Source: an uncultured Candidatus Saccharibacteria bacterium (GTDB taxonomy: Bacteria; Patescibacteriota; Minisyncoccia; Phycocordibacterales; UBA12088). From it: a stretch of 64,000 nucleotides of DNA. Numbering within the stretch: the first letter of the stretch is position 1; each line of letters begins with the position of its first letter. The stretch lies in contig CAZLUD010000001.1 in assembly GCA_964562615.1 (NCBI GenBank), positions 327,628-391,627 on the forward strand, written 5' to 3'. Made by a program: the position numbers and the translations under genes. A model generated the notes under the pieces. It worked only from the letters and a program-made list of their open reading frames with translations, was not told the origin of the DNA and did no database searches. Shown piece after piece: positions 21,116-48,689 of this stretch.

Positions 21116-21514
21116 ATGAATCACCCAGACATTACGCCATCACAACTGGAATCCTTTAAAAATAGACTCCTTACTGAGAAAGCAGAGGTAGAAGAATCAC
21201 TTAAAGAAGTAGGTGTTCGTAATCCACAAAACCCAAGCGATTGGGTAGCAACCCCAGGTGATATGCCTGAGATAAATGCCGATGCAAATGAGCTTAGTGA
21301 TAAGTTTGAAGAATACGGCCAAAATCAAGGGTTGGTAAATAATCTCGAAGTACGACTTGCAAACATCACTCGTGCCCTCGAAAAAATAGAAAACCAGGAG
21401 TACGGTATCTGCGAAATCTCAAGCACACCAATTGAACTAGACAGGCTTGAGGCTAATCCTGCTGCTCGCACCTGCAAGGCTCACATGGAGGAAGGTGACT
21501 CGCTTCAAGCATAG
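21116..21514 (+). CDS. DksA/TraR-family C4 zinc-finger protein.
   Basis: C-terminal CEIS...C..H with a second Cys pair (CEISSTPIELDRLEANPAARTCKAH) preceded by a coiled-coil. Confidence 0.5.
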   Translation: MNHPDITPSQLESFKNRLLTEKAEVEESLKEVGVRNPQNPSDWVATPGDMPEINADANELSDKFEEYGQNQGLVNNLEVRLANITRALEKIENQEYGICEISSTPIELDRLEANPAARTCKAHMEEGDSLQA

Positions 21515-21517
21515 TGT

Positions 21518-27008: not shown

Positions 27009-27052
27009 CTATTCTACAAAAAAACTCTGCTATACTTTGAAGAAGGGTATCT

Positions 27053-29808: not shown

Positions 29809-29817
29809 AACAGCAAT

Positions 29818-31596: not shown

Positions 31597-31607
31597 ATTG
31601 TTGCTTC

Positions 31608-33065
31608 ATGAAAAACGCAATCAGTATAAGTAGTTTTGTATCACTCGTAGTGATCGCGCTATCGTGCGTGAGCATCATTCCAACAAGAAGTAGTGCGCAA
31701 ACACCACCGCAAGAACCGATTACTTGCCAAGAAGTTTCTTCCACCATCGCACAACTCACCGCCCTTCGAGCACGAGCAGAGGCAGCAGACACTCCAGAGG
31801 AGATGCAGGCAGTAGTGGATGAATTTAATAGACTAGAGACACATAATGGTAACGATTTGGTGGTAGCACAACAAGAAAATCAACTTGAAGATAGAAGAGC
31901 ATATTTAATAAGTAGAATAGAGGACACAAAGGAGGTTGATGCAGCACAAGGTGGAAGAAATGCAGAAGAGCTTGATGAGCTACTTGCACGAGCAGAGGCT
32001 GCAGATGACTTTACCGAGCTTGGACGAGTAGAAGGAGAGCTTGGTGAGATACGAGGGAGATTAGGGCTTAGTGGTGGAGGAAGTGGTGGGGGTGGGGGAG
32101 GAGGGGGCACAGTAGGTGGAGGAGGCGGGGGCACCACCACACCAGGAACAGGGGTGGGCTCAGGTACCGCTGCGGGTACACCAACAGACACTGGCTTTGC
32201 TCCAGCAGGGTATACACTTGCGTGGAATGATGAATTCAATTCTCTTAGCTTAGGAAGTGGTTCAGCGTTTAGATGGACGCCATTTGATACGCTTGCTGCA
32301 AATGCTGGATATGATGCAAAAGGAAGAATACTTGCAAGTAACAGCTCTGATGCTATATGGGTTGCTGATTACGAAACAAATGCAGGTGGGACACGAACGT
32401 ATGGTGACGCATTTAAGGCAGCCGGCACCTACGGTGAGGGGCCATTCTTCCATGAGGTAAGTGATGGCGCACTTGCTATGCGTGCGTATCCAGTACCAAG
32501 CTCAGTACGCAACGAATTTATTGCGTATGGATGGCCGCAGGGTGCTCCATACGCCGCAGGTGGAATATTTGGATCACTCTCACATACCCAAACATACGGC
32601 TACTATGAAGTGCGGCTGCGTGTAAATTCAATAACAAGAGGCCAACATTTTGCGCTTTGGCTACTCCAAGACGACCTTGCATGGCCTCCTGAGATAGACA
32701 TGCTTGAGGTTATTGGTGAAAATCCTCAGTTTTATCACACTACCGTACACGGCGAAGGGCCAAATGGCTCTGACCCAACCACCTCATTTAAGCTGCTTCC
32801 AGCAGGAGGGAGCGGGACATGGCACACCTACGGATTTTTGTGGACACCTGAAAGTATGCGATTTTTTGTCGATGGAAAGGAGTATTTCTTAAGAGAAAAT
32901 TATGGGGAAGGGGCAGAAATAGGAACATTACCTAACTTTGTAAACAAGCCAATGTACCTCCTTGCAACCTGGGAAATGGCAAGCTATTGGCCAGGAGATC
33001 CTGATGCAACTACCGTGTGGCCAGCAGAGGTTGAGCTTGATTACGTCCGCATCTACAAACCATAG
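31608..33065 (+). CDS. Secreted protein: the same N-module plus Gly-rich linker as 29818-31596, fused to a glycoside hydrolase family 16-like (beta-glucanase/laminarinase-type) domain.
   Basis: GH16-like motifs WNDEFN and catalytic E-I-D-M-L-E (PPEIDMLEVIGE). Confidence 0.55.
   Translation: MKNAISISSFVSLVVIALSCVSIIPTRSSAQTPPQEPITCQEVSSTIAQLTALRARAEAADTPEEMQAVVDEFNRLETHNGNDLVVAQQENQLEDRRAYLISRIEDTKEVDAAQGGRNAEELDELLARAEAADDFTELGRVEGELGEIRGRLGLSGGGSGGGGGGGGTVGGGGGGTTTPGTGVGSGTAAGTPTDTGFAPAGYTLAWNDEFNSLSLGSGSAFRWTPFDTLAANAGYDAKGRILASNSSDAIWVADYETNAGGTRTYGDAFKAAGTYGEGPFFHEVSDGALAMRAYPVPSSVRNEFIAYGWPQGAPYAAGGIFGSLSHTQTYGYYEVRLRVNSITRGQHFALWLLQDDLAWPPEIDMLEVIGENPQFYHTTVHGEGPNGSDPTTSFKLLPAGGSGTWHTYGFLWTPESMRFFVDGKEYFLRENYGEGAEIGTLPNFVNKPMYLLATWEMASYWPGDPDATTVWPAEVELDYVRIYKP
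31741..32107 (+). repeat. Copy 2 of the 367-bp near-identical repeat (pairs with 29954-30320).
   Basis: Nucleotide alignment by eye. Confidence 0.85.
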
Positions 33066-33131
33066 CGGCGGTACCGACCACACAACAAGAAACTGTGGAG
33101 TAATCTATGCTTCACACGCTAACATGGTGGT

Positions 33132-35558
33132 ATGATAGGTGTATCGCTGTGCATCTTGCACTGTTATATGGCTGCATCACCATTACATAATTTGTATACT
33201 CGCATAAAAAACTTGGTGGTATGTGGATTTGCTGAGCATAAACGCATACTCGCTATCTCGCTTGTGGTAGTGGTGACGCTACTTTTTAGTGCTACTCCAT
33301 ACGCAACACACGCTGCCAATTTGTGGGAAATTATAACCACACCACAGCTTATGTTTGCGTGGGTTGGCTCAGGAGTGTTGTGGCTCATGAGCGGTATCTT
33401 GGGTATTACGGCAATCCTCCTCAATATCACAATTTTGCAAACCGTAACCGGGATGGGAAATCACATCAACGACATAATAGGTATACAAATTGCCTGGGCA
33501 CTACTACGTGATATGGCAAATATATTGTTTATCTTTGGCATTGTATACATAGGCTTGAATCTTATTCTTGGCAACAATAGACACGGGCATCAGCAAGCAC
33601 TTGCACGACTTGTGATTATCGCGCTCGTCATTAACTTTAGTCTCTTTATAACAAAAACCGTAGTCGAGACATCGAATGTAATGGCGAACACGATATTTAG
33701 ACTCATTATTCCTCCGGGCACAACTGGGAGTCAAGCGTGTGATGGAAGAAGCACGCTTCCAGAAAACGTAATACAATGCGTAAATTTTGGTATTACAGGA
33801 ATTATTAATAACTCCCTTGGTCTTACTACGGTATTTAACGTTGGGGGTACTGCAAACTCAGCTGGATTTACCTCTCCAACACTTAACAGCGCTACAGCAA
33901 TTGATGCGTCTAAAATCTTCTACATAACAGCACTCGGTTCAATATTTATTCTCATTACTGCGTTTGTCTTTGCGTCCGCTGCCGTGTTGTTGGTTATTAG
34001 ATTTGTCATACTGATTATACTCATGGTGTTTTCACCGCTTGCGTTTGCGGCGTGGATACTGCCTTCAACGAGTGGTTACTTTTCTTATTGGTTAAAATCA
34101 CTTCTCAATCAATCGTTTTTTGCGCCTGCCTACATGCTTATGATGTGGATCGCAATAAAAATAATCGAGGGGTATGGTGTCTCTACGGTTACTGGTGTTG
34201 CCACACGATCAAACAATTTTGGCGCAGCGCTCTTGGGCGCAAATGTTAGCTTTGCAAACGTATTCTTAAACTTTGCCATTATCACCGTATTTATGGTGGC
34301 AGCGCTTGTAGTTGCAAAGAAACTTGGCGCCATTGGCGCTGATAAGGCATACGGCATTGGTAAGGGATGGGTCAACACCGCACAGTCAACCGCGTATAAG
34401 TACAAGAGCACAATTGCGGCTGGAGCAGCGGGTGCAACTGTATTTCCTGCGCTTGTTGGAGGGGGGGCACTCCTTGGCGCAGCGGCTGGTGTTGCTGGGT
34501 GGAAGGGAACGAGAGTTGGCACGAAGGTAATTGCTGACGAGAGTGCAAGGTTTGCCGGCAGAAAGGTAAACGCGATAAATGAAAGATTGATGAAGGCCCC
34601 AGTAAAAGAAGGTGGTGTTAAAGACACAATAAGAAAAGCGACAATTGGACGATTAGACAATGCACTAGGCTACAGCCAAACAGTGGCAGCTGATGTGAAG
34701 TCAGCACAAGAGAAAGTAAAAGCCCTTTCTAGAGATGGAAATACAAAGGGATCATCTGATTTCCTTCTCGCACAACGTGAAGACGTAAGAAATACGCTAT
34801 TTGCAGGACTATCACCATCTGAACAAATTACTGTGGGGGCAGAGATGGGTAAGAATGTAGTGACTCGAGACGGACTGGTTGATAAGAAAGCTACGGATAA
34901 AAATATCAAGAAAAAAGCCGTCGCACTCTCAAGCCTACGTGAAAGCGCAAGAGAAAAATACCTTGAAGCCATGACAAAGGATTTTGCAAACGACTCAAAA
35001 GAGTTGTACAAACAAATCTCAACGCTTAATGGTGATGATCTAACCTACGCATACTCAAAAATGACTCCACGCATCAGAGCGGCGTACGAAACAGAACTTA
35101 ACAAGGCGACTGGAAATGATACTCGCACAAAATCTCTTAGAAAGACAATATCAATTGAGGATCAAGAAAAAACAGAGAAAGAAGCAGGTGAAGTAAAAGC
35201 TCGTACAGAGAAAAAATCAAGATCTGGAGACCTTATCACCTTGATACAGCAACATCAAACACTCTCTACAACACCAACAACCTCAAATCCATCTTCACCT
35301 ACCGGCACAGAGATTGATAATAAAATCCGTAACATTATTAGAGTAATGGGCGACAAAGAAGTAACGGATCTAAAACCAGATGTGTTGAAGAGTAAAGAAT
35401 TTGCAAAGCATGTAACAGTAGGAATGCTCTCTAAAATTGCTGCGGTAGACAATATCACGCAAGAGACCAAACAAACACTTAGAGATAATGTTATGAGTGT
35501 AAACAATACAAAAGGAATCAGTTGGCTACAAGACAAAGGTAAAGATTTATTCCAATAA
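33132..35558 (+). CDS. Polytopic membrane protein, VirB6/TrbL-like component of a type IV secretion system. It has a long hydrophilic C-terminal tail. The start is probably downstream of 33132.
   Basis: Six or more transmembrane segments in the first ~400 aa; Gly-rich intramembrane stretches. It is in a cluster with a VirB4 ATPase and PrgI-like proteins. Confidence 0.45.
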   Translation: MIGVSLCILHCYMAASPLHNLYTRIKNLVVCGFAEHKRILAISLVVVVTLLFSATPYATHAANLWEIITTPQLMFAWVGSGVLWLMSGILGITAILLNITILQTVTGMGNHINDIIGIQIAWALLRDMANILFIFGIVYIGLNLILGNNRHGHQQALARLVIIALVINFSLFITKTVVETSNVMANTIFRLIIPPGTTGSQACDGRSTLPENVIQCVNFGITGIINNSLGLTTVFNVGGTANSAGFTSPTLNSATAIDASKIFYITALGSIFILITAFVFASAAVLLVIRFVILIILMVFSPLAFAAWILPSTSGYFSYWLKSLLNQSFFAPAYMLMMWIAIKIIEGYGVSTVTGVATRSNNFGAALLGANVSFANVFLNFAIITVFMVAALVVAKKLGAIGADKAYGIGKGWVNTAQSTAYKYKSTIAAGAAGATVFPALVGGGALLGAAAGVAGWKGTRVGTKVIADESARFAGRKVNAINERLMKAPVKEGGVKDTIRKATIGRLDNALGYSQTVAADVKSAQEKVKALSRDGNTKGSSDFLLAQREDVRNTLFAGLSPSEQITVGAEMGKNVVTRDGLVDKKATDKNIKKKAVALSSLRESAREKYLEAMTKDFANDSKELYKQISTLNGDDLTYAYSKMTPRIRAAYETELNKATGNDTRTKSLRKTISIEDQEKTEKEAGEVKARTEKKSRSGDLITLIQQHQTLSTTPTTSNPSSPTGTEIDNKIRNIIRVMGDKEVTDLKPDVLKSKEFAKHVTVGMLSKIAAVDNITQETKQTLRDNVMSVNNTKGISWLQDKGKDLFQ

Positions 35559-35570
35559 ATACTAATTGCC

Positions 35571-36167
35571 ATGGATGAACTAGAACTAAAGTTTAAAGAG
35601 CACTTTGATCGACTACCAGAGGTTGTGCAAGAGTATGTGCTTCATGGTAATTACTCATCTGAAATAGCGTCCATAGGGCATCTATTCAAATTTCACATTG
35701 ATACGATGGGGCAACTTTCCGATTTTGTCACCTATGTCTTGGTTGGTATTATACCCACCCACGAAGCAGAGAAGAAATTTACTGAGTTCTTACCTGAGTA
35801 TTCAGCTCAAACAAAAGCAATCTTACAAGAAATTGAGCGCCGAATCTTGAGTAGTGTACGCACCATGACCACAATTAAATCTGATTCGACTGCTCCCATT
35901 GAACAGGTGACGGCACCGAGTGCTATTTCCAATCTCCCTACAACACCAGCACAACAAGCACAGACTGTGCCAATAAACACCGCACAAGTACCTGTTGCTG
36001 TTTCGCCACAAAAATTACCAATGGTTACACCAGCCACTCCACCAACAAGTCAAACAGCACCGAACCAAAATGCTTCTACACCAATGAAAACGGTAGGGAA
36101 GGAGATAGTTATTCCAGACACTGCACCGAAAAAATCAACGGATCCCTATCGAGAGCCAGTTGACTAA
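35571..36167 (+). CDS. Hypothetical protein with a Pro/Thr/Gln-rich C-terminus, associated with the T4SS cluster.
   Basis: ORF, tightly spaced within the cluster. Confidence 0.35.
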   Translation: MDELELKFKEHFDRLPEVVQEYVLHGNYSSEIASIGHLFKFHIDTMGQLSDFVTYVLVGIIPTHEAEKKFTEFLPEYSAQTKAILQEIERRILSSVRTMTTIKSDSTAPIEQVTAPSAISNLPTTPAQQAQTVPINTAQVPVAVSPQKLPMVTPATPPTSQTAPNQNASTPMKTVGKEIVIPDTAPKKSTDPYREPVD

Positions 36168-36197
36168 ATAATGTTTTCATGGTATAAATAATATAGT

Positions 36198-37523
36198 GTG
36201 CTCTTTGACAGAGCGCTTTCTAAACACTTAACTGGAGGTCATCCGATGACGAACAGTGTACTGGATCTGGTCTCGATTATCCTATTTCCACACACGTTTG
36301 CGCTTTTTGTGGGTCTGTTTTCGGTGCTATACGCACCATTTACCATTAACTCAGCAAAAAATCCTGCGAGATTTCTCTCCATGTTCACACGTGTCTCTCC
36401 AAACCAACTCAAAATTATTGAGTGGGGTGGAACATTTGTGAGGGTTATTTGTGTCAACCCTGGGTACGCCTTCAGAGCGTGGGTTGATAGTGGTGGTAAC
36501 ATGTTGCCTTCAAAAAACAACTTACATGAATGGGAGGTGGTTGAAAGACCTCCAACCTGCCCTCCAATGCCAGAAGTTGTGCCTGGAAGTATATTTTCTG
36601 GGCGCTACACGAAATGGCTTTCTCCGCTCTTTGTGTTTAGACTGGTATCCTACAAGATAACAGGTCTTCACTTTTATGGCATCGCGCCATATGTGCAGGT
36701 CAGATCACAAGACTACAAGCGCGGAAAGGTGCCTGACTCTGGTGAAATATCACTAGAGACCGTAACACAGGTTGTAGATGAGACCGATCATTTTAGACTA
36801 AGTGCGTTTACAAACCTCACCGTATCGGGAAAGCTCCCAACACAGCAGGGGTGGGGGGTGTCTGTACTTGTTGCGCTTGAGCTGTCAATTACCGACGCTC
36901 CGAGCGCTGCCTATTCGGTGAATAGGTGGGACCAAAACATACAGCAACGCGTTGTTGCTGCCATTGCTGAAGCGATGCATGGAGCAAACATCGGTTCGGT
37001 ATATGGAGGTGGTGATATCTCTCACAAGAACGCCATCGTGGATAAGTGTTGGTTCTTCTTGACGGGGCTTGATACTAACGCACGAGCCACCAATGCCAGA
37101 TACTTCCGTACTGTTGCTGATTTGGGAAGCATCAACGTGCACAACATTCGAGTTGTGGATATGAATGCTGATCAGCATTCACAAGAAGCGGTGGAGCAAG
37201 CACTCTCTGCTGCCTTTGTTGGGACCCAGGAAGGAAACAAGATCAAGAACAAACTTACCCTTGAAGGAGAAGGTAGGCAGGCTTTCCTGAGTAACCAAAT
37301 TAGCGGCGTAAGCGAGAGCCTAACCGACCAAGAAAAAATGAGGTTGGCCATACGCATCATTGAGGGGGAGGCACTTCGAAACGCAGTGATAGATGGAGGC
37401 GCGAAGGTAATAGCCACGTTTGGTAACCAGCAGCAAGAACCAGGCGCTCCGCTTTCGTTGCCTCAATTTATTGCGGCAACGAAAGAAGATTCTCAGCAGA
37501 ACACGGAAGGAGACCGTCAATGA
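36198..37523 (+). CDS. Hypothetical membrane-anchored protein (441 aa), associated with the T4SS cluster.
   Basis: N-terminal transmembrane segment (LVSIILFPHTFALFVGLFSVLYAPF). Its stop overlaps the next gene. Confidence 0.35.
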   Translation: MLFDRALSKHLTGGHPMTNSVLDLVSIILFPHTFALFVGLFSVLYAPFTINSAKNPARFLSMFTRVSPNQLKIIEWGGTFVRVICVNPGYAFRAWVDSGGNMLPSKNNLHEWEVVERPPTCPPMPEVVPGSIFSGRYTKWLSPLFVFRLVSYKITGLHFYGIAPYVQVRSQDYKRGKVPDSGEISLETVTQVVDETDHFRLSAFTNLTVSGKLPTQQGWGVSVLVALELSITDAPSAAYSVNRWDQNIQQRVVAAIAEAMHGANIGSVYGGGDISHKNAIVDKCWFFLTGLDTNARATNARYFRTVADLGSINVHNIRVVDMNADQHSQEAVEQALSAAFVGTQEGNKIKNKLTLEGEGRQAFLSNQISGVSESLTDQEKMRLAIRIIEGEALRNAVIDGGAKVIATFGNQQQEPGAPLSLPQFIAATKEDSQQNTEGDRQ

Positions 37524-38206
37524 CACAAGAGGGAGGTGGGTGGACGCTGGATATACTTCCCATAATACCAGCATCAATAGAGATAGCTGTAATACTAGCT
37601 ATCCTTTTCACCCTTCTGGTGGTAATCATTTCTGTTTTCAAATCGGAATCCTCAGGAGCAGCGCCCTCAACCACTAAACGTATCTCGCTTAGTGGGAGTC
37701 TTATACCACTTGGGGGGGTAATCCTGATCGGTGTCACCATTCTTGTGGTAGCACTGTACTGGCCATCACAAACCCCATTCCTCGCATTGGTGTTGCCAAT
37801 ACTCTGGCACTACACCGCCTCAAGGACAAAAGCTGAGGCGCATTTTTGGGGGATCACGTGGAGGGATGGTGAACAATACCTTTCCTCGTACTTGATGCTC
37901 CAATTTATGTTCCAAATGCTGTTCCTTGTAGGGGTTATTTTACTCCTACTATTGTGGGGGCCTTGGTTCCTTGCTAAGGCACTCCAAGGATCCGCGCTCT
38001 ATATAATTCTTGGTGTTGGTATAATTTTTACCACCTGGTTCTTTGAGAGCTGGGGCAAATTTACCAGGATGATGCTATATGCATTTGGTGGAGGCGTCAC
38101 CCTATTATGGTTGTTTGGCAGAAAACTTGCTGCCCAAAATGATTTCGCCACCATAGAGTTGTGGCGAAATAACATACTCGAGCTAGATAAGCTATTTTAT
38201 CTCTAG
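37520..38206 (+). CDS. Polytopic membrane protein (about 6 transmembrane segments), associated with the T4SS cluster.
   Basis: Hydrophobicity; ATGA overlap with the upstream gene. Confidence 0.4.
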   Translation: MTQEGGGWTLDILPIIPASIEIAVILAILFTLLVVIISVFKSESSGAAPSTTKRISLSGSLIPLGGVILIGVTILVVALYWPSQTPFLALVLPILWHYTASRTKAEAHFWGITWRDGEQYLSSYLMLQFMFQMLFLVGVILLLLLWGPWFLAKALQGSALYIILGVGIIFTTWFFESWGKFTRMMLYAFGGGVTLLWLFGRKLAAQNDFATIELWRNNILELDKLFYL

Positions 38207-38280
38207 CTCGAAGAGGCTTGAAGCCGTGATGCAATATCATCACGGCTTCTTTTATTTGTGATACACAGTCAAAAGCAGAG

Positions 38281-38784
38281 TTGCCAACAATTATTTATAT
38301 AAATGACTTAGCTATAGGTTGTATTCGAGGTACAATATACTCACATACCCCTATGCGTTATCACGTACCACAATTTATTGATATCGAAGATAAAGTGGTT
38401 GGACCACTTACCATAAAACAGTTTGTGTACATCGCGGGAGGTGTAGGGTTTGTTGCACTTCTTACCGCATTTATGCCGTGGCAGTGGGCTGCTATTGTGG
38501 GTAGTCCGCTTGTACTCCTTGGATTACTCCTTGCCTTCTATCAAGTAAACAATCAACCTTTTATCGCAATAATGGAAGCGGCATTTTATTACCTTGTGAG
38601 TAAAAAACTCTATCTTTGGAAAAAGAATACTGGGGTAAAAGATGAAGCAAAAGAAATGGTAGGGAAGGAAGCGCTCGTGCATACTCCCTATGTGCCAAAA
38701 GTCTCTAATAATAGACTTAAAGAGCTTGCGTGGTCACTAGACATAAAAGATAAAACTGGTGGTTCAACACTAAATCAATCGTAG
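38281..38784 (+). CDS. PrgI/TcpE/VirB3-like small membrane protein of Gram-positive-type T4SS.
   Basis: Motif GPLTIKQFVYIAGGVG followed by two transmembrane helices. It lies immediately upstream of the VirB4-like ATPase. Confidence 0.45.
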   Translation: MPTIIYINDLAIGCIRGTIYSHTPMRYHVPQFIDIEDKVVGPLTIKQFVYIAGGVGFVALLTAFMPWQWAAIVGSPLVLLGLLLAFYQVNNQPFIAIMEAAFYYLVSKKLYLWKKNTGVKDEAKEMVGKEALVHTPYVPKVSNNRLKELAWSLDIKDKTGGSTLNQS

Positions 38785-38785
38785 T

Positions 38786-39430
38786 ATGAAAGAAGTTAAT
38801 AAAAAATCAGGCGCATCACAAGCATTTGTACCCATCGAGGAGGTGCGAGATGGAATTGTCATACTTAAAGACGGCTCATTGCGCGGAGTGTTTATGGCGT
38901 CATCGACCAACCTCGCCCTAAAGGGGCAAGACGAGCAACAAGCTATCCTCACCCAGTTTGGACAATTCCTTGATTCGCTTGATTTTTCAGTGCAATTTTT
39001 TGTGCAATCACGAAAACTTGATATTCGCCCCTATGTCGCCATGCTTGAAGCGCGCTATGTTGAACAAACAGAAGAGCTCATGAAAATACAGGTACGTGAG
39101 TATGTAGATTTCATAAAAACATTTACCGAGGGTGCCAATATCATGACAAAAAGCTTCTTTGTGGTAGTGCCATACGCACCAGCAATTATTGGTAGCGCAT
39201 CATCAATAAATCCTTTTGCAAAAAAAGACGAAAGTGGTGAAGCGTCCAATGCCACCTTTGAAGAGAGCAGGTCACAACTTGAGCAGCGCATGGGCATCGT
39301 ACAACAGGGGTTGCTACGATCTGGAGTACGGGTCGCACAACTCGGAACCGAAGAGGTGATAGAATTGTTTTACAAGATGTTTAACATGGGTGAACTAGAG
39401 CGCCCTATCCCTCTTGATAACAGAGCATAG
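38786..39430 (+). CDS. T4SS-associated hypothetical protein (214 aa) whose N-terminus resembles the N-terminal region of VirB4-family proteins (VPIEEVRDGIVILKDGSLRGV).
   Basis: Motif similarity by recollection only. Its stop (TAG at 39428-39430) lies 5 nt before the VirB4 start. Confidence 0.35.
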   Translation: MKEVNKKSGASQAFVPIEEVRDGIVILKDGSLRGVFMASSTNLALKGQDEQQAILTQFGQFLDSLDFSVQFFVQSRKLDIRPYVAMLEARYVEQTEELMKIQVREYVDFIKTFTEGANIMTKSFFVVVPYAPAIIGSASSINPFAKKDESGEASNATFEESRSQLEQRMGIVQQGLLRSGVRVAQLGTEEVIELFYKMFNMGELERPIPLDNRA

Positions 39431-39435
39431 TATAT

Positions 39436-41271
39436 ATGGGACTATTTGATATCTTTAACAAAAAAGGCGACAAAGAGTCGATGGAGGATTACCACATCCA
39501 GCCCGTACTTCCTGCAGAGATGTTTGAAGTTGGCTCTCTTGAGCTTAAAGATGTTATCGCACCATCTGCGCTAGAGATTACCCCCAAAGAAATGAACTTG
39601 GGTGACAAAGTAGTCCGAACATTTTTTGTTATTTCGTACCCGAGCTTTCTCTCTGATAACTGGTTTTCTCCAATTATCAATCTCGATAAAGTGTTTGATG
39701 TCTCAATCTTTGTTCATCCTATAGACACCGCCTCGGTACTTAAAAAGTTTCAAAAAAAGGTAGCAGAGGTACAAAGCCAGATTCAACTACGCGAAGAAAA
39801 AGGACTTGTCCGCGACCCAAAACTAGATAGTGCATATCAAAACCTCGAGGAACTCCGTGATAAATTGCAACAAGCACAGGAGCGTCTGTTTGATGTTGGT
39901 TTGTATATCTCTATATACGGAGACAGTAGGGAGGAGCTTGATAAAATTGAATCAGAGATAAAATCAATTCTAGAAGCGCAGTTGGTCTATTTAAAGCCCG
40001 CACTCTTTCAACAGGAGCAGGGGTGGAAGAGTGTCATACCTATTTCTACCGACTTACTTAGTGTGCATTCAAAACTAAACTCTCAACCACTTTCAAGCTT
40101 TTTTCCTTTTATTTCTTTTGATCTCTCTGCAGATACCGGTATCCTCTATGGTATCAACCGCCACAACTCATCTTTGGTGTTGTTTGACCGATTCTCAATG
40201 GAAAACTACAACTCTGTGGTATTTGCAAAATCTGGTTCTGGAAAGTCCTACACCATAAAGCTAGAGATTTTGCGTTCACTCATGTTTGATACAGACATCA
40301 TTGTTATCGACCCAGAACGTGAGTATGAATATATCGCTGAAGCAACTGGCGGGCGTCACTTTAACATTTCACTTTCATCAGGTCACCATATCAATCCGTT
40401 TGATCTTCCTATACCCCGAGAGGACGAGTCTCCTTCAAACGTTCTTCGATCACACGTGGTATCGCTGGTGGGATTGTTTCGTATTATGCTCGGCGGGCTT
40501 TCTCCAGAAGAAGACTCAATTATAGACAGGGCAATAACCGAGACCTACGCACTAAAAGACATCACCGGTGAACATGACTTTTCAAGCATGAACCCACCGC
40601 TTCTCTCTGATTTTGAACTAGTACTTGCTGGTATGGATGGAAGTGAATCACTTGTACAACGACTCACCAAGTACACCAAGGGTACGTGGGCAGGATTTAT
40701 TAACCGTCCTACCAATGTTGATATCAACAAACGATTCGTGGTGTTTTCAGTACGTGACATGGAAGACGAGCTGAAGACTGCCGCGATGTACATCATCACT
40801 AACTTTATTTGGGCAACCATACGCAAAGAGCTCAAAAAGAGGCTCTTGGTGGTAGATGAGGCGTGGTGGATGATGAAATCAGAAGACACCGCATCATTTC
40901 TCTATGGTATTGCAAAGCGAGGACGAAAATACTATCTAGGTTTGGCAACCATCACTCAAGACGTTGATGACTTTTTGAAAAGCCCATATGGCGTACCGAT
41001 GATCACCAACTCATCTATACAATTACTCCTTAAACAATCTCCAACCTCAATAGGAACAATCCAGCAGGTATTTAACCTTACCGATGAAGAGAAATATCTT
41101 CTTCTTGAATCTAATGTGGGGGAGGGGATATTCTTTGCTGGCATGAAGCACGTAGCGATAAAGATAATTGCTTCGTACACCGAGGATCAGATTATTACCT
41201 CTGATCCGTCACAGCTCCTCTCTATAAAGAAAGCACGCGATGAAAAAAAGGCGTCTGTTGATACGGTATAA
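39436..41271 (+). CDS. virB4: VirB4/TrbE/CagE-family type IV secretion ATPase.
   Basis: Walker A (VVFAKSGSGKSYTIK), Walker B (LLVVDEAWWMM). The N-terminal block APSALEI...RTFFVISYPSFLSDNWFSPIINLDKVFDVSIFVHPID is typical of Gram-positive VirB4 homologues. Confidence 0.8.
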   Translation: MGLFDIFNKKGDKESMEDYHIQPVLPAEMFEVGSLELKDVIAPSALEITPKEMNLGDKVVRTFFVISYPSFLSDNWFSPIINLDKVFDVSIFVHPIDTASVLKKFQKKVAEVQSQIQLREEKGLVRDPKLDSAYQNLEELRDKLQQAQERLFDVGLYISIYGDSREELDKIESEIKSILEAQLVYLKPALFQQEQGWKSVIPISTDLLSVHSKLNSQPLSSFFPFISFDLSADTGILYGINRHNSSLVLFDRFSMENYNSVVFAKSGSGKSYTIKLEILRSLMFDTDIIVIDPEREYEYIAEATGGRHFNISLSSGHHINPFDLPIPREDESPSNVLRSHVVSLVGLFRIMLGGLSPEEDSIIDRAITETYALKDITGEHDFSSMNPPLLSDFELVLAGMDGSESLVQRLTKYTKGTWAGFINRPTNVDINKRFVVFSVRDMEDELKTAAMYIITNFIWATIRKELKKRLLVVDEAWWMMKSEDTASFLYGIAKRGRKYYLGLATITQDVDDFLKSPYGVPMITNSSIQLLLKQSPTSIGTIQQVFNLTDEEKYLLLESNVGEGIFFAGMKHVAIKIIASYTEDQIITSDPSQLLSIKKARDEKKASVDTV

Positions 41272-41279
41272 TACGGGGT

Positions 41280-41756
41280 ATGCACGTAGATAACGACAAT
41301 TACAGAATTTCCTCCTTTACAGGAGGCATGATGGTGAGTGTTGCCATGATAACCGACGTGGTGCAAATGGCACTCACCGGGCTACACCTATTTATCCCCC
41401 TCTTTGGGAGTATGCTTTCTATACTTAGTATCTTTGGTATAACCACCCTCGGGGGGCTTATTTTCTTTCTTTGGTTTCATATTCTTGATGTGAGTCAAAT
41501 AGATTCAGCGCTTGATAACCCTGGCGCAACATTTGCCTTTTCGATTGCAGAACTATCGCCGTTTGTTAACTTTCTCCCTTTTATGACTATAAAAGTAGCG
41601 TGGGAGGTATACTCATCGAGGCTTTCAGACAAAAAAGAGATGGAGAAAAGCAAGAAGAAAAAAGCACAACTACGACAACGTCAGTTACAACAGGCGATGA
41701 ATGCTCGTATGTTGGCACAAAATGCAAATAATCAAGTAATTCAAGATGCGAGCTAG
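41280..41756 (+). CDS. Small polytopic membrane protein with a Lys/Gln-rich C-terminal tail; a T4SS cluster component.
   Basis: Hydrophobicity only. Confidence 0.35.
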   Translation: MHVDNDNYRISSFTGGMMVSVAMITDVVQMALTGLHLFIPLFGSMLSILSIFGITTLGGLIFFLWFHILDVSQIDSALDNPGATFAFSIAELSPFVNFLPFMTIKVAWEVYSSRLSDKKEMEKSKKKKAQLRQRQLQQAMNARMLAQNANNQVIQDAS

Positions 41757-41789
41757 AGGAGGGGGGTAAAAAGGTGGTATACTTTTTTT

Positions 41790-42806
41790 ATGATTCGTAT
41801 AGGTATGATGATGGTGATATGGAGTGTGGGGATATTGGTATCTCTTAGTCCTTTACCGTTGCTTGCACAGTCATTTGGTATTGGCATACCATCGCCAACT
41901 ATTGGCGGTTCGCCTCTTACCATGGAAATGTTTCCTCAATACGCACGCCCGGGTGAGTATGTGGAGTTTTCTTTAGTTAGCTCAACCATCGCACTTTCAA
42001 CCGCTACTGTCACCTGGACAGTAAATGGTACTCGAGTATTTTCTGGTGCATCGGCAACAAAATACGTGTATAAAATCCCAGAGAGTACTGATCCATTTGT
42101 GGTGGTAGCAGATGTCTACACAAGAACAAATCAGTACTTTACGACACGTCTTACCGTACAACCATCATCTCTTACCCTCCTCTATGAAGGCGCCACCTAC
42201 GCGCCGCCACTATATGCCGGAAGACCAACACTCTCACCAGAGGCAAGTCTTTCGGTACACGCGATTCCTGCTGTGATAGAAAACGGCATAGAGCTACAAC
42301 CGGATGATCTCTATTTTAAGTGGACCGTGAATGGAAAGTTTGTTTCTGAATTATCTGGACTTGGCAAAAGCTCTGCGATTGTAGCAAACACTGGGTACCT
42401 CCGTCCTTTAGATATTATTGTGGAGGCATCATCAGATAACGGAACCATTGCAGGGGATAGAATAAAAGTGTCGGTAGAAAATCCGTGGGTTGTCTTCTAT
42501 GAAAATGATCCGTTGCTTGGCATTCGCTACGACAAAGCACTTGGAACATACTCGCTAAAAAATGAGGAGGTGACAGTTATTGCAGAGCCCTACCATATGA
42601 GCGCATACAAAAGAAATGATGCTACCCTTGAGTATTCTTGGGGAATCAATCAGGAACGACAGGCAGAAACCACTGCACCGAGCATCACCCTTCGTCCACA
42701 GAGCGATACAGGTAGTGGAATCTCTACCATAGGTGTTTATATACAAAATACCGTCTTCGAACTGCAAAACGTAGCTAATGCATTTAGAATAAACCTCTCA
42801 CAATAA
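41790..42806 (+). CDS. Secreted protein (signal peptide, 338 aa), likely beta-rich; a T4SS cluster component.
   Basis: N-terminal signal-like segment MIRIGMMMVIWSVGILVSLSPLPLLA. Confidence 0.35.
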   Translation: MIRIGMMMVIWSVGILVSLSPLPLLAQSFGIGIPSPTIGGSPLTMEMFPQYARPGEYVEFSLVSSTIALSTATVTWTVNGTRVFSGASATKYVYKIPESTDPFVVVADVYTRTNQYFTTRLTVQPSSLTLLYEGATYAPPLYAGRPTLSPEASLSVHAIPAVIENGIELQPDDLYFKWTVNGKFVSELSGLGKSSAIVANTGYLRPLDIIVEASSDNGTIAGDRIKVSVENPWVVFYENDPLLGIRYDKALGTYSLKNEEVTVIAEPYHMSAYKRNDATLEYSWGINQERQAETTAPSITLRPQSDTGSGISTIGVYIQNTVFELQNVANAFRINLSQ

Positions 42807-42812
42807 TATTGT

Positions 42813-43298
42813 ATGAATGTTGTAACTATACTAAAAGGGCTGCTCATATTCATGGTCACGCTAGTTATCGCGGTACCATCATACGCCCTTGCTGCTGATC
42901 CAATCGAGCCGTTAATTTTCCTTCCACGGATTGTTGGTGATGCATCATCTCCGACAAGCGTAGAGGGGCTGCTTCAAGGATTGTTTCAACTTTCCATTTC
43001 AATCGGTGCGATTTTGGCAGTGATAATGATTGCTGTTGGTGGTATTGAGTATATGGGTAGTGACGCAATATCAAGCAAGCAAGCAGGGAGAGAGCGTATG
43101 TTTAATGCAGTACTTGGGCTAGTGCTTATACTTGGTACCTATGTGATTTTAAATACAATAAATCCCAATCTCCTTAGCTTTGCTATTTTCTCCGCCCCTG
43201 GTAATCAGGTTGAATCTAGAGCTGATTTTCCAACTGAGGCAGTAACAAATCCAGGCAGTGGGCCTACACAGGGGGTACCTGCTGGTACCAGTGGTTAA
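42813..43298 (+). CDS. VirB2/TrbC-like pilin-type protein: a signal peptide followed by two hydrophobic helices separated by a short polar loop.
   Basis: Topology (signal, then LFQLSISIGAILAVIMIAVGGIEYM, polar loop, then AVLGLVLILGTYVILN) resembles T4SS pilins. There is no sequence-level proof. Confidence 0.35.
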   Translation: MNVVTILKGLLIFMVTLVIAVPSYALAADPIEPLIFLPRIVGDASSPTSVEGLLQGLFQLSISIGAILAVIMIAVGGIEYMGSDAISSKQAGRERMFNAVLGLVLILGTYVILNTINPNLLSFAIFSAPGNQVESRADFPTEAVTNPGSGPTQGVPAGTSG

Positions 43299-43374
43299 GC
43301 ACTTTGCTTGACTTGCGCTTGGGTCTAATTAGTTGTATAAAATATACAGTGAAAACCTGAAGTAGGAGGTACTC

Positions 43375-43815
43375 GTGTTTAAGGCACTACTGAGGAGTGT
43401 GTTGCTCCTTGCTTTTCTTGGGAGCCCCATTTATGGGGCTGAATACAGCAAAAAACCAATTGTAGTGGACGCACTGGGGGGGAGGATGTTAGGGGTTAAT
43501 GCCCTAACACAAAACGACAACTACATTTGGTATGGGAAAGACGAAGAAGTTCGGGATGTGACGATGAAAGTCATCTGCACTCTCGAACAGGCGAACACCG
43601 AATTTGTGGTTCTTGTCGATCCACAAACTAACAGTGCGGTTGAGGTGCGAGGGCATCACTTCATCTATCTCAAGTATTTTAGGGTGGACGGCATATCCAC
43701 CCACAAGTGCGACAAACGAGTCGTCGCGATCGAGAAGGGTACCTTAAAGAGTATCCTTCAGATAAACGAAGAAAAGCTGCAAATCAGGCAGGTGGCAGTT
43801 GTAGCTACAAACTAA
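43375..43815 (+). CDS. Small secreted protein (146 aa).
   Basis: Signal-like N-terminus. Confidence 0.3.
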   Translation: MFKALLRSVLLLAFLGSPIYGAEYSKKPIVVDALGGRMLGVNALTQNDNYIWYGKDEEVRDVTMKVICTLEQANTEFVVLVDPQTNSAVEVRGHHFIYLKYFRVDGISTHKCDKRVVAIEKGTLKSILQINEEKLQIRQVAVVATN

Positions 43816-45237
43816 ATGGGAGGTATCCTCAATGAGGATAACCGGAGGCAGAAGGAGCGCATCGAGATGAAATACGATGCGCTTTTTCAATTATGCCATT
43901 TGGCATACGTTGATAATTACAAACACCCGCACCCTCCACGCGTTAGTAAATCCATGAGATACTACAGCTACATGGAGGATCTAAAAAAGAAACTTGCCGA
44001 AAATTGGAAGCAACTAGTACTACTCATCATAGTAGTGCTTATACTCATTGCGGTTGCAATGTTTATGTTTTTACGAAGTGACACTAACTCCACCAACACA
44101 ACAGAGACTGGGGTATTTCCACAAGCGGGGGATAGGGGGATTGGCTTTCCTAACACCAACGAGCAAGGCGGTATAAGCAATACACCCGCAACAACCACAA
44201 ACGAGATTCCGCTATTAAGACAATTGTGGAGTAAGCCTGTTTCTGGGGCTGGGTATTTTCGAAGCAATGAAGAGACTCTTGCGGTGCGCTTTGTTGAAAG
44301 AGCTAGCGGCCATATATATGACATACCTACAGATAGCCTTACCGCTACCAAAATACTCAATATTACTATCCCTCGTATTCAACACGCATTCTTTTTTAAT
44401 AACGGAGGAAATCTAATTCTTCAATATCTTAGCGATCTGCATACCAGCATCGAAACCTATAGCGCCACCCTTATACCCGTCTTGGATGATGGAGAAAACG
44501 CTTATTCGCTTGATGGGACATTCTTACCCGCTGACATTACGGCAATAACCCCATCACCGGATGGCAAATCGCTTTCATTTATTCAAAAGAACGAAACCGG
44601 TTCAACACTATATAAGTCGTCACTTGATGCGGGAAGCGCGGTTGAGTTGTTTAGAAGTCCTTTTAAGAGTTGGCGATTAGAGTGGGCAAGTCCAAGTAGG
44701 GTAGTGCTTACCTCTGCACCTCATCCAGGCGCAATTGGTTCCACTTTTGCTATTGCAACAGAAGATGGGGCACTCAAAAGTTTGGTCACCTCTAAGAATG
44801 GTTCATTTACCGCATCAAGTAATGACAACCTTACCTATACTGTTTTCTCTGAAGAGATTGATAAAGTGGTGAGATTGTATGCCTATGACTACGCAAAAAA
44901 GGAGCGCAAGAATCTTAATTTGAGTACATTTATGGATAAATGTGTGTGGAGTAATGTCTCCAACACCACCCTATACTGTTTTGTGCCTAATCAGCTTGTC
45001 ATACCTGGAAACATCTTGGCGTGGAACCAAGGTGGAGGTAATTTTGCTGACAACATGTGGAAGATTGATGTCAGCACTGGAGAAGCCGTACTCCTATACC
45101 AAATTGATAAAGAGTTTAGCAAGTACCTCGATGTAATAAAGCCTGTACTTGCCGATGATGATTCAAGTATTACCTTTATAGACAAAAACGACCTCACACC
45201 GTGGCTCCTTTTATTTAGTACCTCAAAAGGAGAGTAG
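43816..45237 (+). CDS. Membrane-anchored protein with a large extracytoplasmic domain (possibly beta-propeller-like). The real start is probably an internal Met near MRYYSYMEDLKKK.
   Basis: Single transmembrane helix (LVLLIIVVLILIAVAMFMFL), then ~400 aa of Ser/Thr-rich beta-type sequence. Confidence 0.35.
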   Translation: MGGILNEDNRRQKERIEMKYDALFQLCHLAYVDNYKHPHPPRVSKSMRYYSYMEDLKKKLAENWKQLVLLIIVVLILIAVAMFMFLRSDTNSTNTTETGVFPQAGDRGIGFPNTNEQGGISNTPATTTNEIPLLRQLWSKPVSGAGYFRSNEETLAVRFVERASGHIYDIPTDSLTATKILNITIPRIQHAFFFNNGGNLILQYLSDLHTSIETYSATLIPVLDDGENAYSLDGTFLPADITAITPSPDGKSLSFIQKNETGSTLYKSSLDAGSAVELFRSPFKSWRLEWASPSRVVLTSAPHPGAIGSTFAIATEDGALKSLVTSKNGSFTASSNDNLTYTVFSEEIDKVVRLYAYDYAKKERKNLNLSTFMDKCVWSNVSNTTLYCFVPNQLVIPGNILAWNQGGGNFADNMWKIDVSTGEAVLLYQIDKEFSKYLDVIKPVLADDDSSITFIDKNDLTPWLLLFSTSKGE

Positions 45238-45261
45238 GGTACCGAGTACGTATACAAGTTA

Positions 45262-45756
45262 TTACACCAGCTCCGCGTCTCCTGTAGGAATAAAGCCGGC
45301 GTTTCGTGGTGTGATAACAATATGTCGATCTCTTCCTTCTCCACGAGATTCGGTTTTTATATCCTTATCTTCAGAAAAGAGGGCGTGTATTATCATGCGT
45401 TCATATGAGCTCATTGGTTGAAGGGGTACTTCTGCTTTTAACGAACGTACTCGCTCTGCGAGCATTTTTACTGTACTGACAAGGGTATCAATCTTATTCT
45501 TTTGGAAGTTGTTCACATCAAGCATGAAATGCCTTCCTTCTTCGCCATATTTCTTCTCTGTTATCCTTTTTACAATATGCGTTAGCGCTTGCAGTGTCTC
45601 ACCGCGCTCACCAACAAGTACTTGATTAGGAGAAGTGACCATCACAGAAGGGTGTATATCTGACGCCTCAACTACCACACTCTCATACTCTGCCCCCATG
45701 GCGGCAAGTACCTCTTCTACTATTGTTTTAAGTTCTTGGGGATTCATACTAGGCAT
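45262..45756 (-). CDS. Jag/KhpB-type RNA-binding protein (KH plus R3H domains).
   Basis: C-terminal R3H-like region (ERMIIHALFSED...ESRGEG). Conserved position after yidC. Confidence 0.65.
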   Translation of the reverse strand: MPSMNPQELKTIVEEVLAAMGAEYESVVVEASDIHPSVMVTSPNQVLVGERGETLQALTHIVKRITEKKYGEEGRHFMLDVNNFQKNKIDTLVSTVKMLAERVRSLKAEVPLQPMSSYERMIIHALFSEDKDIKTESRGEGRDRHIVITPRNAGFIPTGDAELV

Positions 45757-46471
45757 CGTTCTTTATATGCTTCTTTACATACATCTCTTGGAAAATTTGG
45801 AACACATTACTTGTTATCCAGTACAACGCAACCGCAGCAGGAAGTGCGTATGAAATACCAGTAATAATAAGAGGGAAGACATACTTCATTTGAAGCTGAA
45901 AACTTCGTTGAAAATCATCACTAAATGAAGCGTTATCTTTTCGCTTTGTGATTTCAGGCATCACAATATGCATTTGTATGTATTGGGTGATACCGGTAAG
46001 GAGCGCAAGGAATATATTTCTCTCAGCAACATTAATAAGCCCCAAGAAATTCATATCGATTGTAGCTGGAGTTGGTATAAAGCTATACAGAATGTCAGTG
46101 TTAATACTTGGTAGTCCTCCGCTTGAGAAAACCCAAAAAAGCCCAAGAATGATAGGTATCTGAACAAGAAGAGGGATAAACAATGAAAATGGGCTTATGT
46201 TGTACTCTCGGTAGAGCTCCATTGTTTTAAGGGCAAGTGCTTGCTTATCTTCTTTGTATTGCTCTTTTAGCGCCTCCAGCTTTGGTTGCATGAGACGAAT
46301 TATTTGTTGAGTTTTGGCCGCTTTAAGGGAGATAGGGAAGAGGAGAAACTTTACCGCTAGAGTAAGTACAATAACCGCAATACCAAGCTCTGCGTACGGC
46401 ACCACAGAAACGATTCCCACAAGGGCGTTATATAAAGGGTTATATACTACCGCATTAAATATGTCTGCCAT
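45749..46471 (-). CDS. yidC: Membrane protein insertase YidC (short form).
   Basis: 240 aa polytopic protein in the rnpA-yidC-jag context. Motif PLLVQIPIILGLFWVF. Confidence 0.75.
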   Translation of the reverse strand: MADIFNAVVYNPLYNALVGIVSVVPYAELGIAVIVLTLAVKFLLFPISLKAAKTQQIIRLMQPKLEALKEQYKEDKQALALKTMELYREYNISPFSLFIPLLVQIPIILGLFWVFSSGGLPSINTDILYSFIPTPATIDMNFLGLINVAERNIFLALLTGITQYIQMHIVMPEITKRKDNASFSDDFQRSFQLQMKYVFPLIITGISYALPAAVALYWITSNVFQIFQEMYVKKHIKNDA

Positions 46472-46876: not shown

Positions 46877-47014
46877 TTAAACCGCTAATCTAGCTCTGCC
46901 CTTCATTCTTCTTCGCTTGAGCACTCTGGTGCCTGTTTTGGTCCTGGATCTAACTAAAAATCCGTGAGTGGTCTTTCTTTTTTTGTTTTTTGGTTGGTAG
47001 GTTCTCTTTGGCAT
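46877..47014 (-). CDS. rpmH: 50S ribosomal protein L34 ([45 protein letters not shown]). It is not in the ORF track because it is shorter than 60 aa.
   Basis: Manual translation of the minus strand. The L34 signature is nearly invariant. Start ATG at 47014; stop TAA at 46877-46879. Confidence 0.9.
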
Positions 47015-48453: not shown

Positions 48454-48689
48454 TGTGGATATATATGTGGATAACAAATGAACAGTACTGTGGAAAAGAG
48501 ATGAATGAGAAAGGTGATAACTCGAGGACAACACAACTAGTACATTTCAAAAATAGGTATACGAGCCGTATGAACACTTATACACAAACATCTATGCATA
48601 AATACCTACCTGTGTAGCTATGGTTAGAAGTTATCCACGTATCCACACCCCTAATAATAAAACTATCTTTATAAGCAAAAAAACTCACT
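48454..48689. promoter_or_regulatory. Probable oriC. The DnaA-box cluster lies between dnaA and dnaN: TGTGGATAT (48455-48463), a perfect TGTGGATAA (48467-48475), TTATCCACG (48631-48639) and TATCCACAC (48640-48648). A further near-consensus box, TTATACACA, sits at 47024-47032 upstream of dnaA.
   Basis: 9-mer matches to TTATCCACA or its complement seen directly. AT-rich spacer. Classic dnaA-dnaN intergenic origin. Confidence 0.65.

Follow-up and report, generated by a model that had tools for sequence, protein, structure and literature searches.

The DNA analyzed here is a stretch of 64,000 nucleotides (nt) from contig CAZLUD010000001.1 of assembly GCA_964562615.1, referred to below as the window. 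The subject is a gene cluster related to type IV secretion systems (T4SS) at positions 33132-45237 of its + strand. A scan for open reading frames (ORFs) found 12 long, co-directional ORFs between these positions, with lengths of 808, 198, 441, 228, 167, 214, 611, 158, 338, 161, 146, and 473 amino acids (aa). The same 12 genes were obtained from an independent gene call for the identical locus in public assemblies, which places later starts at 33216, 38353, and 41805 for three of them. An earlier note, made from the sequence alone, had described the cluster as 13 co-directional genes; the cluster and its orientation are real, and the count was one too many. The tight packing reported there is also observed, with intergenic gaps of -4 to 76 nt. 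A single translationally coupled operon, as proposed in the same note, is unlikely because a strong terminator-like hairpin at 38220-38249 (+ strand; 12-bp stem with 7 GC pairs, and a T-tract) splits the cluster. This hairpin is the top-ranked terminator-like site in the interval 26500-46000. It separates the fourth gene from the fifth, where one of the two widest gaps occurs, and comes directly after a pair of inserted genes (36198-38206) that is described below. The cluster probably consists of at least two transcription units.

The ATPase of the cluster is encoded at 39436-41271 (+; 611 aa) and was identified using NCBIfam and Pfam as a VirB4 protein of the CD1110/MPF_FATA monoderm type that is devoid of the N-terminal domain. 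The NCBIfam model for the VirB4-like conjugal transfer ATPase, CD1110 family (conju_CD1110), gives a score of 378.7 bits against a cutoff of 325, and the match spans model positions 184-733 of 752 only. In Pfam, P-loop_TraG is matched at 84.8 bits, together with AAA_10 and DUF87. The Walker A (AKSGSGKS) and Walker B (LLVVDE) motifs that had been recognized from the sequence are present. The Gram-positive-type N-terminus that had been assigned to this protein is instead a separate polypeptide of 214 aa, encoded at 38786-39430 (+). This TrsD/TraC-like protein was identified as the VirB4 N-terminal domain using NCBIfam and BLASTP. It matches the NCBIfam TrsD model at 34.2 bits, covers positions 5-119 when aligned with the CD1110 model of VirB4, and is similar to residues 35-201 of a full-length VirB4 from a C. 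perfringens plasmid (BLASTP E-value of 2e-7); PF26593 (TraC-like) appears in the precomputed annotation. Relatives of the locus were compared in a synteny set of 43 GTDB species genomes with full 10-kb flanks, in which the presence of a gene was scored using tblastn. The split of VirB4 is judged genuine because the TrsD-like and VirB4 proteins are encoded by separate ORFs in 43/43 of these relatives. The VirB4 of the window is 75-82% identical to hundreds of Paceibacteria VirB4 proteins and shares no more than 35% identity with any VirB4 from a plasmid; its best plasmid relatives, at 28-35% identity, are from Firmicutes and Actinobacteria.

A PrgI/VirB3-like membrane protein with two helices is encoded at 38281-38784 (+; 167 aa). 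A score of 28.6 bits is obtained for PrgI (PF12666), above the cutoff of 27, which agrees with the original assignment. The independent gene call gives 38353 as the probable true start, for a protein of 143 aa, and the gene is present in 43/43 relatives. The gene at 42813-43298 (+) encodes a VirB2-like T4SS pilin, a 161-aa protein that has two hydrophobic helices and a signal peptide. This protein had been described as a pilin-like two-helix protein, a call that holds with a score of 30.5 bits for T4SS_pilin (PF18895; cutoff of 26.6); TrbC is matched at 17.8 bits. The pilin was found in 39 of the 43 relatives, at times in two copies, with lengths of 140-500 aa.

The first gene of the cluster (33132-35558, +) encodes a polytopic membrane protein of 808 aa, or 780 aa from the probable true start at 33216, and was found in 42/43 relatives. 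It was assigned as an extended VirB6/TrbL-like protein using the Pfam matches of its orthologues and a fold match. TrbL (PF04610) matches 6 of 39 orthologues, and TrbL or TrbL_3 is precomputed for about 14 of 47 database homologues. When a family profile of the membrane domain was compared with the PDB, R388 TrwI/VirB6 appeared first, at an E-value of only 0.26; the profile of the full-length family was swamped by coiled-coil matches from the C-terminal domain. An AlphaFold2 (AF2) model was built with the database homologues and has a predicted local distance difference test score (pLDDT) of 75 and a predicted template modeling score (pTM) of 0.71. The top 7 matches of this model in a Foldseek search of the PDB are all TrwI/VirB6, with a probability of 1.0 and target TM-scores of 0.46-0.51. 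No significant alignment was obtained using hhalign between the family and a single PrgH or plasmid VirB6-like ORF, or between the family and a 6-sequence TrbL alignment, a shallow template of low power. The VirB6/TrbL-like call made earlier is thus carried by the orthologues and the TrwI/VirB6 fold. The C-terminus is a hydrophilic domain of ~350 aa and, given this tail, the protein corresponds to what PMC12857230 calls an "extended VirB6".

The gene order in the relatives is ksgA, 27053, 28087, VirB6-like, 35571, PrgI, TrsD, and VirB4, followed by 41280, 41790, pilin (1-2 copies), 43816, (jag) yidC, rnpA, dnaA, and dnaN, where the genes denoted by number are named after their first position in the window. 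This order is kept in 43/43 related genomes, which are from different Paceibacteria lineages. Each core gene was detected in at least 37 and up to 43 of these 43 genomes, and the 27053 family was detected in 29 of them. The conserved module comprises 11 families and begins at 27053, not at 33132, with two more conserved genes upstream (27053-28090 and 28087-29808). In the relatives the module begins directly after ksgA; in the window two lineage-specific genes (29818-33065) part the 27053 and 28087 genes from VirB6.

The VirB4 relatives at 75-82% identity are Kaiser-, Campbell-, Nomura-, Taylor-, Wolfe-, Zambryski-, and Yonathbacteria, together with metagenome-assembled genomes (MAGs) labeled "Paceibacterota". 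Because the identity to Paceibacteria MAGs is this high, the organism is identified from its VirB4 sequence as a Paceibacteria/Parcubacteria-type bacterium within the Candidate Phyla Radiation (CPR) and not as a Saccharibacterium. The reduced T4SS-like machinery of the CPR that the earlier note recognized is upheld, and the Saccharibacteria label that it attached is not. Many GTDB MAGs titled "uncultured Candidatus Saccharibacteria bacterium" (L001, L002, L007, L010, and others) carry the Paceibacteria-type locus, and their VirB4 proteins are 75-82% identical to those of Kaiser-, Campbell-, and Nomurabacteria. On such records the Saccharibacteria title seems to be a catch-all name rather than a taxonomic placement.

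Median identities to the window were calculated for the same loci (L002-L079). The value for VirB4 is 76%, somewhat inflated by the selection of the loci by VirB4 similarity, and those for TrsD, DnaA, KsgA, DnaN, and YidC are 59, 56, 46, 43, and 43%, respectively. The exposed and membrane parts of the module are at 26-30%, with 29% for the VirB6-like protein, 30% for 28087, 28% for 41790, and 28% for 43816. The contrast is large all the same, and these values indicate that the motor (VirB4 and TrsD) is under strong purifying selection. The pairing of a highly constrained motor with fast-diverging surface parts is consistent with a machine whose contact partners vary.

The cluster is followed by jag, yidC, rnpA, rpmH (46877-47014, -), dnaA (47071-48453), and dnaN. 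A probable oriC with six DnaA-box-like 9-mers is located at 48454-48647, in the dnaA-dnaN spacer, 3.2 kb past the end of the module. These six, out of 23 DnaA-box matches in the window, fall within 194 nt, and one is a perfect TTATCCACA. The near-origin housekeeping setting proposed previously is confirmed by these features, and the locus holds the same slot, from ksgA to yidC/dnaA, in 43/43 relatives. The minimum of the cumulative GC skew appears at ~11-12 kb, where the gene orientation flips; the skew seems to follow the coding strand. A PilB-type T2SSE ATPase (369 bits) is encoded at 55313-57151 (-), indicating that genes for a type IV pilus system also lie near the origin. Upstream of the module, a DksA/TraR-type zinc-finger gene and comM (Mg-chelatase-like) lie at 21116-23017 in conserved synteny with uvrD and ksgA, also in loci L086 and L087. 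No Pfam match was obtained for an ORF of 537 aa at 19461-21074, which is flanked by the PNPase and DksA-like genes.

Those long ORFs of the 64-kb window that were scanned with Pfam include housekeeping genes, and no relaxase, VirD4, or element-type integrase was found among them, in agreement with the absence of a relaxase and VirD4 reported in the earlier note. The XerC/D-like recombinase that the note placed at 15043-15993 was confirmed by Pfam; it lies 17 kb upstream of the cluster and is the only recombinase found in the window. The same context of NusA, XerC/D, S15, and NYN is observed in a distant relative.

The module also contains conserved genes outside the known T4SS parts. The first gene of the module (27053-28090, +; 345 aa) encodes a protein with one hydrophobic segment, either an N-terminal membrane anchor or a signal sequence. 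A match to TSP3_bac, a calcium-binding repeat, is below threshold at 19.5 bits. The gene overlaps 28087-29808 by 4 nt, and its family is found directly after ksgA in 29/43 full-flank relatives using tblastn. A small soluble protein of 198 aa, predicted to be cytoplasmic and with no hydrophobic segment, is encoded at 35571-36167 (+). It has a low-complexity linker rich in Pro, Thr, and Gln that is followed by a nearly invariant C-terminal DPYRE(P) motif, in which DPYRE is conserved at 90% or more in the family. This tail looks like a short docking peptide. The gene at 41280-41756 (+) encodes a conserved but fast-evolving small membrane protein (158 aa), in which 2-3 hydrophobic helices are accompanied by a charged tail. 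Divergence within the 35571 and 41280 families is too rapid for tblastn to follow, and conservation was judged from the linkage of the ORFs that occupy each slot: 43 of 48 ORFs in the 35571 slot, and 20 of 25 in the 41280 slot, form one family that includes the window ORF. For both proteins, no Pfam match was obtained and no PDB match was found by family-profile search.

The conserved gene at 41790-42806 (+; probable start at 41805) encodes a secreted protein of 338 aa composed of three Ig-like repeats. The motif W..NG appears three times. BiPBP_C matches 8 of 39 orthologues, Ig_3 and PKD matches also occur, and weak Ig-like matches were obtained when the family was compared with the PDB. The gene at 43816-45237 (+; 473 aa) encodes a conserved bitopic membrane protein for which profile searches and topology prediction indicate a TolB-like beta-propeller on the outside. 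The predicted topology comprises ~66 cytoplasmic residues, one transmembrane helix, and the extracellular propeller. Twelve TolB sequences are the sole matches of the family profile in the PDB below an E-value of 0.1, the best at 5.8e-6 over ~120 residues; PD40 matches 2/44 orthologues, and DPPIV_N and PG_binding_1 match a few. The 41790 and 43816 families are both present in 43/43 relatives. PHROGs gave no match for any gene of unknown function in the cluster.

The gene at 28087-29808 (+) encodes a conserved secreted or anchored protein of 573 aa with a variable C-terminal extension, and is a candidate for a VirB5/TrbJ-like subunit. Its helical N-terminal domain of ~300 aa defines a very large CPR family. 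A word-indexed homologue search found 6 proteins; the family size was obtained from an exhaustive search, which gave 5302 clusters at 50% identity (E<=1e-3) with lengths of 335-1170 aa. A few members carry adhesin-type C-terminal domains. The family is present in 37/43 relatives, directly upstream of the VirB6-like gene, and this order mirrors trbJ-(trbK)-trbL in R751. The NCBIfam TrbJ model matches 8 of 78 members, with a best E-value of 7.7e-6 and far below the curated cutoffs, and Pfam DUF4141 matches 2 of 78. In Bacteroides conjugative transposons, the order of the locus tags places a DUF4141 protein next to traJ, with traG on its other side.

A TrbJ hidden Markov model (HMM) was built from seven IncP-type TrbJ proteins. 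Among 150 representatives of the family, this model matches 44, and the four highest scores are 22.3, 21.2, 16.6, and 15.0 bits. The maximum scores in the controls are 6.4 bits for 167 VirB4/VirB6 proteins, 5.6 bits for 193 other secreted cluster proteins, and 3.0 bits for 450 shuffles. The aligned stretch corresponds to the mature N-terminus of TrbJ, (I/V)PV(I/F)D..N..Q..(I/V)SAV. The motif is clear in some members of the family and degenerate in the protein from the window (TVVEVGANLYTNVANTV), which itself has no match to any VirB5/TrbJ model in Pfam or NCBIfam. Alignment of the family with TrbJ using hhalign covered 15 columns at a probability of 2.5%, where the positive control also failed. 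No fold match was obtained for the AF2 model (pTM of 0.31), and tblastn of the protein against plasmids returned nothing relevant. A VirB5/TrbJ-like (pilus-tip or stalk) subunit is a lead that the motif suggests for this gene. In the main text of PMC12102498 and PMC10633639, no VirB5-like subunit is reported for the Patescibacteria clade.

Five genes in this part of the window have no counterpart in the 80 related loci that were used for the absence tests: 29818-31596, 31608-33065, 36198-37523, 37520-38206, and 43375-43815. The comparison identifies all five as recent, lineage-specific insertions into the locus and not as core parts. The pair at 29818-33065 sits between the conserved upstream genes and VirB6. 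The first gene of this pair (29818-31596, +) encodes a secreted protein of 592 aa with a coiled-coil and a Gly-rich N-terminal module, for which Beta_helix (right-handed) is matched at 18 bits, below threshold. The second (31608-33065, +) encodes a secreted glycoside hydrolase of family GH16 (485 aa; Glyco_hydro_16, 73.4 bits). Both have a common N-terminal module of signal peptide, coiled-coil, and Gly-rich stretch. A DNA repeat of 300 nt with 95% identity (29907-30206 and 31694-31993) indicates that this module was duplicated recently. The two products may be wall- or glycan-degrading cargo that was recruited to the T4SS locus.

The other three insertions lie within the cluster. The gene at 36198-37523 (+) encodes a protein of 441 aa with an N-terminal membrane anchor, and is translationally coupled through a 4-nt overlap to 37520-38206 (+), which encodes a polytopic membrane protein of 228 aa with ~4-5 hydrophobic segments. 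A small secreted protein of 146 aa is encoded at 43375-43815 (+). The GC contents at third codon positions (GC3) of these three genes are 0.47, 0.48, and 0.55, respectively, versus 0.31-0.43 in the conserved genes. They are regarded as insertions because of this atypical GC3 and their absence from the 80 related loci. No match was found for 36198-37523 in Pfam, NCBIfam, or PHROGs, for 37520-38206 in the same three databases, or for 43375-43815 in Pfam or PHROGs. The scans of viral and metagenome sequences found no relatives of 36198-37523; a lone metagenome match was rejected as spurious, since it lies on a high-GC contig. An apparent resemblance of 36198-37523 to SPFH/band-7 proteins is backed by no tool and is not claimed. 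Related loci and viral and metagenome contigs contain no relatives of the two-gene insertion 36198-38206, and 43375-43815 is an orphan of the same kind. Among the genes that the earlier note put forward as novel components, four (35571, 41280, 41790, and 43816) are conserved in the relatives, and three (36198, 37520, and 43375) are insertions and not core parts.

The locus is interpreted as the Paceibacteria version of the Patescibacteria (CPR) T4SS: a vertically inherited, origin-adjacent system that descended from monoderm conjugation machinery and whose DNA-processing parts (relaxase and coupling protein) were lost or never kept nearby. The probability of this reading is estimated at roughly 85%. 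The membrane platform is represented by the split CD1110/MPF_FATA VirB4, the PrgI/VirB3-like anchor, and the extended VirB6/TrbL-like channel protein, and a VirB2-like pilin accompanies it. Seven further families keep the same order in related genomes. Monoderm ancestry is proposed because VirB4 finds its best plasmid relatives in Firmicutes and Actinobacteria, the protein belongs to the CD1110 family, and the local gene order is shared. A vertical, chromosomal nature is proposed because the order ksgA-module-yidC-rnpA-dnaA-dnaN holds in the 43 full-flank genomes.

In the working model, VirB4 and TrsD, docked on PrgI and VirB6, would power the assembly of a filament or conduit from VirB2 and possibly also from the VirB5-like protein. 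This structure would cross the single membrane and the cell wall of a monoderm envelope, and the fast-evolving surface parts would touch the host cell. What the machine transports between the symbiont and its host would be proteins, small molecules, or other molecules, and not DNA in the relaxase-led manner of plasmids. A function in host interaction rather than conjugation is suggested by analogy with published transposon sequencing (Tn-seq) in one Saccharibacterium (PMC10633639).

Several observations weigh against this interpretation. The 808-aa VirB6-like protein of the window has no significant HMM match in the Pfam and NCBIfam scans, and its identity is drawn from orthologues and from a fold match whose TM-score is modest. 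A motif of ~35 residues underlies the VirB5-like lead, to which hhalign and the fold search lend no support. The cluster is divided by the hairpin at 38220-38249. A coupling protein or an unusual relaxase could be encoded elsewhere in the genome; VirD4-like genes are far from virB4 in most CPR genomes (PMC12102498). The essentiality data stem from another class (Saccharimonadia) and not from Paceibacteria.

Three other explanations were considered. The T4SS genes are homologous to those of Firmicutes conjugative plasmids and integrative conjugative elements (ICEs), and a tyrosine recombinase is encoded 17 kb upstream, as might be expected for an ordinary or decayed ICE with its relaxase, coupling protein, and integrase outside the cluster. 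This explanation is very improbable and was rejected. The recombinase is XerC/D-like and occupies a conserved housekeeping synteny that is also found in a distant relative. The Pfam scans detected neither relaxase nor VirD4 in 64 kb, the chromosomal slot is fixed in 43/43 related genomes, VirB4 is more conserved than DnaA, and the conserved genes are of native composition. The missing relaxase and coupling protein would also be expected of a competence-type T4SS such as H. pylori ComB or archaeal Ced, since neither is needed for import; such a system would take up DNA from the host to obtain nucleotides or genes. CPR bacteria are unable to make nucleotides (PMC10633639), and comM and uvrD lie upstream in conserved synteny. 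The VirB4 protein matches the CedB DNA-import model at 37.5 bits, but this is far under the cutoff of 700, and the score for the CD1110 conjugative model is ten times higher. In Southlakia, competence requires type IV pili and ComEC, and comEC can be deleted without loss of viability, in contrast to the essential T4SS (PMC12857230). The window also encodes a PilB-type ATPase for type IV pili. DNA uptake is considered a minor possibility, at low odds.

The third explanation is that the conserved genes of unknown function are mere syntenic neighbors in a frozen origin-proximal region and not parts of the machine. The whole region from NusA and XerC/D to DnaN is syntenic across Paceibacteria, where order alone is no proof of functional linkage, and these proteins have no significant match to a known T4SS family. 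However, the genes are interspersed on the same strand among bona fide T4SS genes, from which gaps of -4 to 33 nt separate them, and all of their products except the soluble 35571 protein are membrane or secreted proteins. They also evolve fast, unlike the housekeeping neighbors, and the 28087 family has a TrbJ-like motif and adjoins VirB6 as trbJ adjoins trbL in IncP plasmids. Simple neighborhood is considered unlikely, although it keeps some weight.

Within the interpretation as a Patescibacteria T4SS, a more specific proposal is offered tentatively and at less than even odds. The Paceibacteria T4SS may be a distinct variant, in which a monoderm inner platform is combined with a diderm-like VirB2 pilus that bears a diversified VirB5/TrbJ-like tip with swappable adhesin domains. 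In place of VirB8, VirB1, and the core complex, this variant would use CPR-specific envelope proteins (the TolB-like propeller, Ig-repeat, and DPYRE proteins). Few machines have been shown to be indispensable for the epibiotic lifestyle; the CPR T4SS is one of them, on evidence from one Saccharibacterium, and the window provides a clean Paceibacteria example. The comparison with relatives separates core from accessory genes and reveals a cytoplasmic motor that is more conserved than DnaA together with fast-evolving surface parts. The conserved proteins with a TrbJ-like motif, a TolB-like propeller, Ig repeats, or a DPYRE motif are nominated for structural and genetic work.

The system in the window is not new; it is a real example of the Patescibacteria T4SS that was described in 2023-2025. 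Almost all Paceibacteria have such a chromosomal cluster, which lacks a relaxase, beside the origin of replication. Quinonero-Coronel et al. (2025, Microb Genom 11:001409, PMC12102498) reported VirB4 in 2,417 of 3,035 Patescibacteria genomes and a Patescibacteria VirB4 clade nested in MPF_FATA. TrsD, VirB3/PrgI, VirB6, and VirB2-like pilins were found near virB4, relaxases were almost absent, VirD4-like genes were mostly distant, and the Paceibacteria locus was located beside dnaA, dnaN, rnpA, rpmH, and ksgA. Wang et al. (2023, Cell, PMC10633639) demonstrated that the T4SS and pilin genes are essential for the epibiotic growth of Southlakia epibionticum, and in a 2025 review (PMC12857230) the authors speculated that exchange with the host takes place through a pilus or conduit formed by the system. 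The locus in the window is like that of the published clade (PMC12102498; SEML1_0006-0019 of Southlakia, PMC10633639) in its MPF_FATA VirB4, TrsD-like protein, PrgI/VirB3, VirB6, and VirB2-like pilin, in having no relaxase or coupling protein nearby, and in its dnaA/dnaN/rnpA/rpmH/ksgA setting. Nothing essential differs. The window has a single pilin gene, whereas pilin arrays of up to 11 occur in Saccharimonadia; it has no detectable VirB1-like hydrolase or VirB8-like gene, and its cluster carries three lineage-specific insertions. The TolB-like propeller, Ig-repeat, and TrbJ-like-motif proteins, among others, are not named in the main text of PMC12102498 or PMC10633639.

The monoderm MPF_FATA systems (PrgH-PrgI-PrgJ of pCF10 and the CD1110-type plasmids of Clostridium) have the local order VirB6-like, PrgI, and VirB4 in common with the window, and their VirB4 is of the same CD1110 family at 28-35% identity. 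These plasmids encode a full-length VirB4 of ~785 aa, VirD4 (CD1115 family), a relaxase with MobC, a VirB1-like hydrolase, and VirB8-like proteins, and they have no pilin. In contrast, the window has a split VirB4 and a VirB2-like pilin, and DNA-processing genes were not found in 64 kb. Compared with the diderm P-type/VirB systems, the window is devoid of the outer-membrane core genes VirB7, VirB9, and VirB10 and of VirB11. The candidate VirB5 is two to four times longer than the diderm protein, to which its similarity extends over ~35 residues and is below family thresholds. With the stalk module of these diderm systems (R388 TrwJ-TrwI, PDB 7O3V), the window has in common a VirB2-like pilin, the TrwI fold of the VirB6-like protein, and a gene upstream of VirB6 that belongs to a family with the TrbJ-type mature N-terminal motif, in the order of trbJ-(trbK)-trbL in R751.

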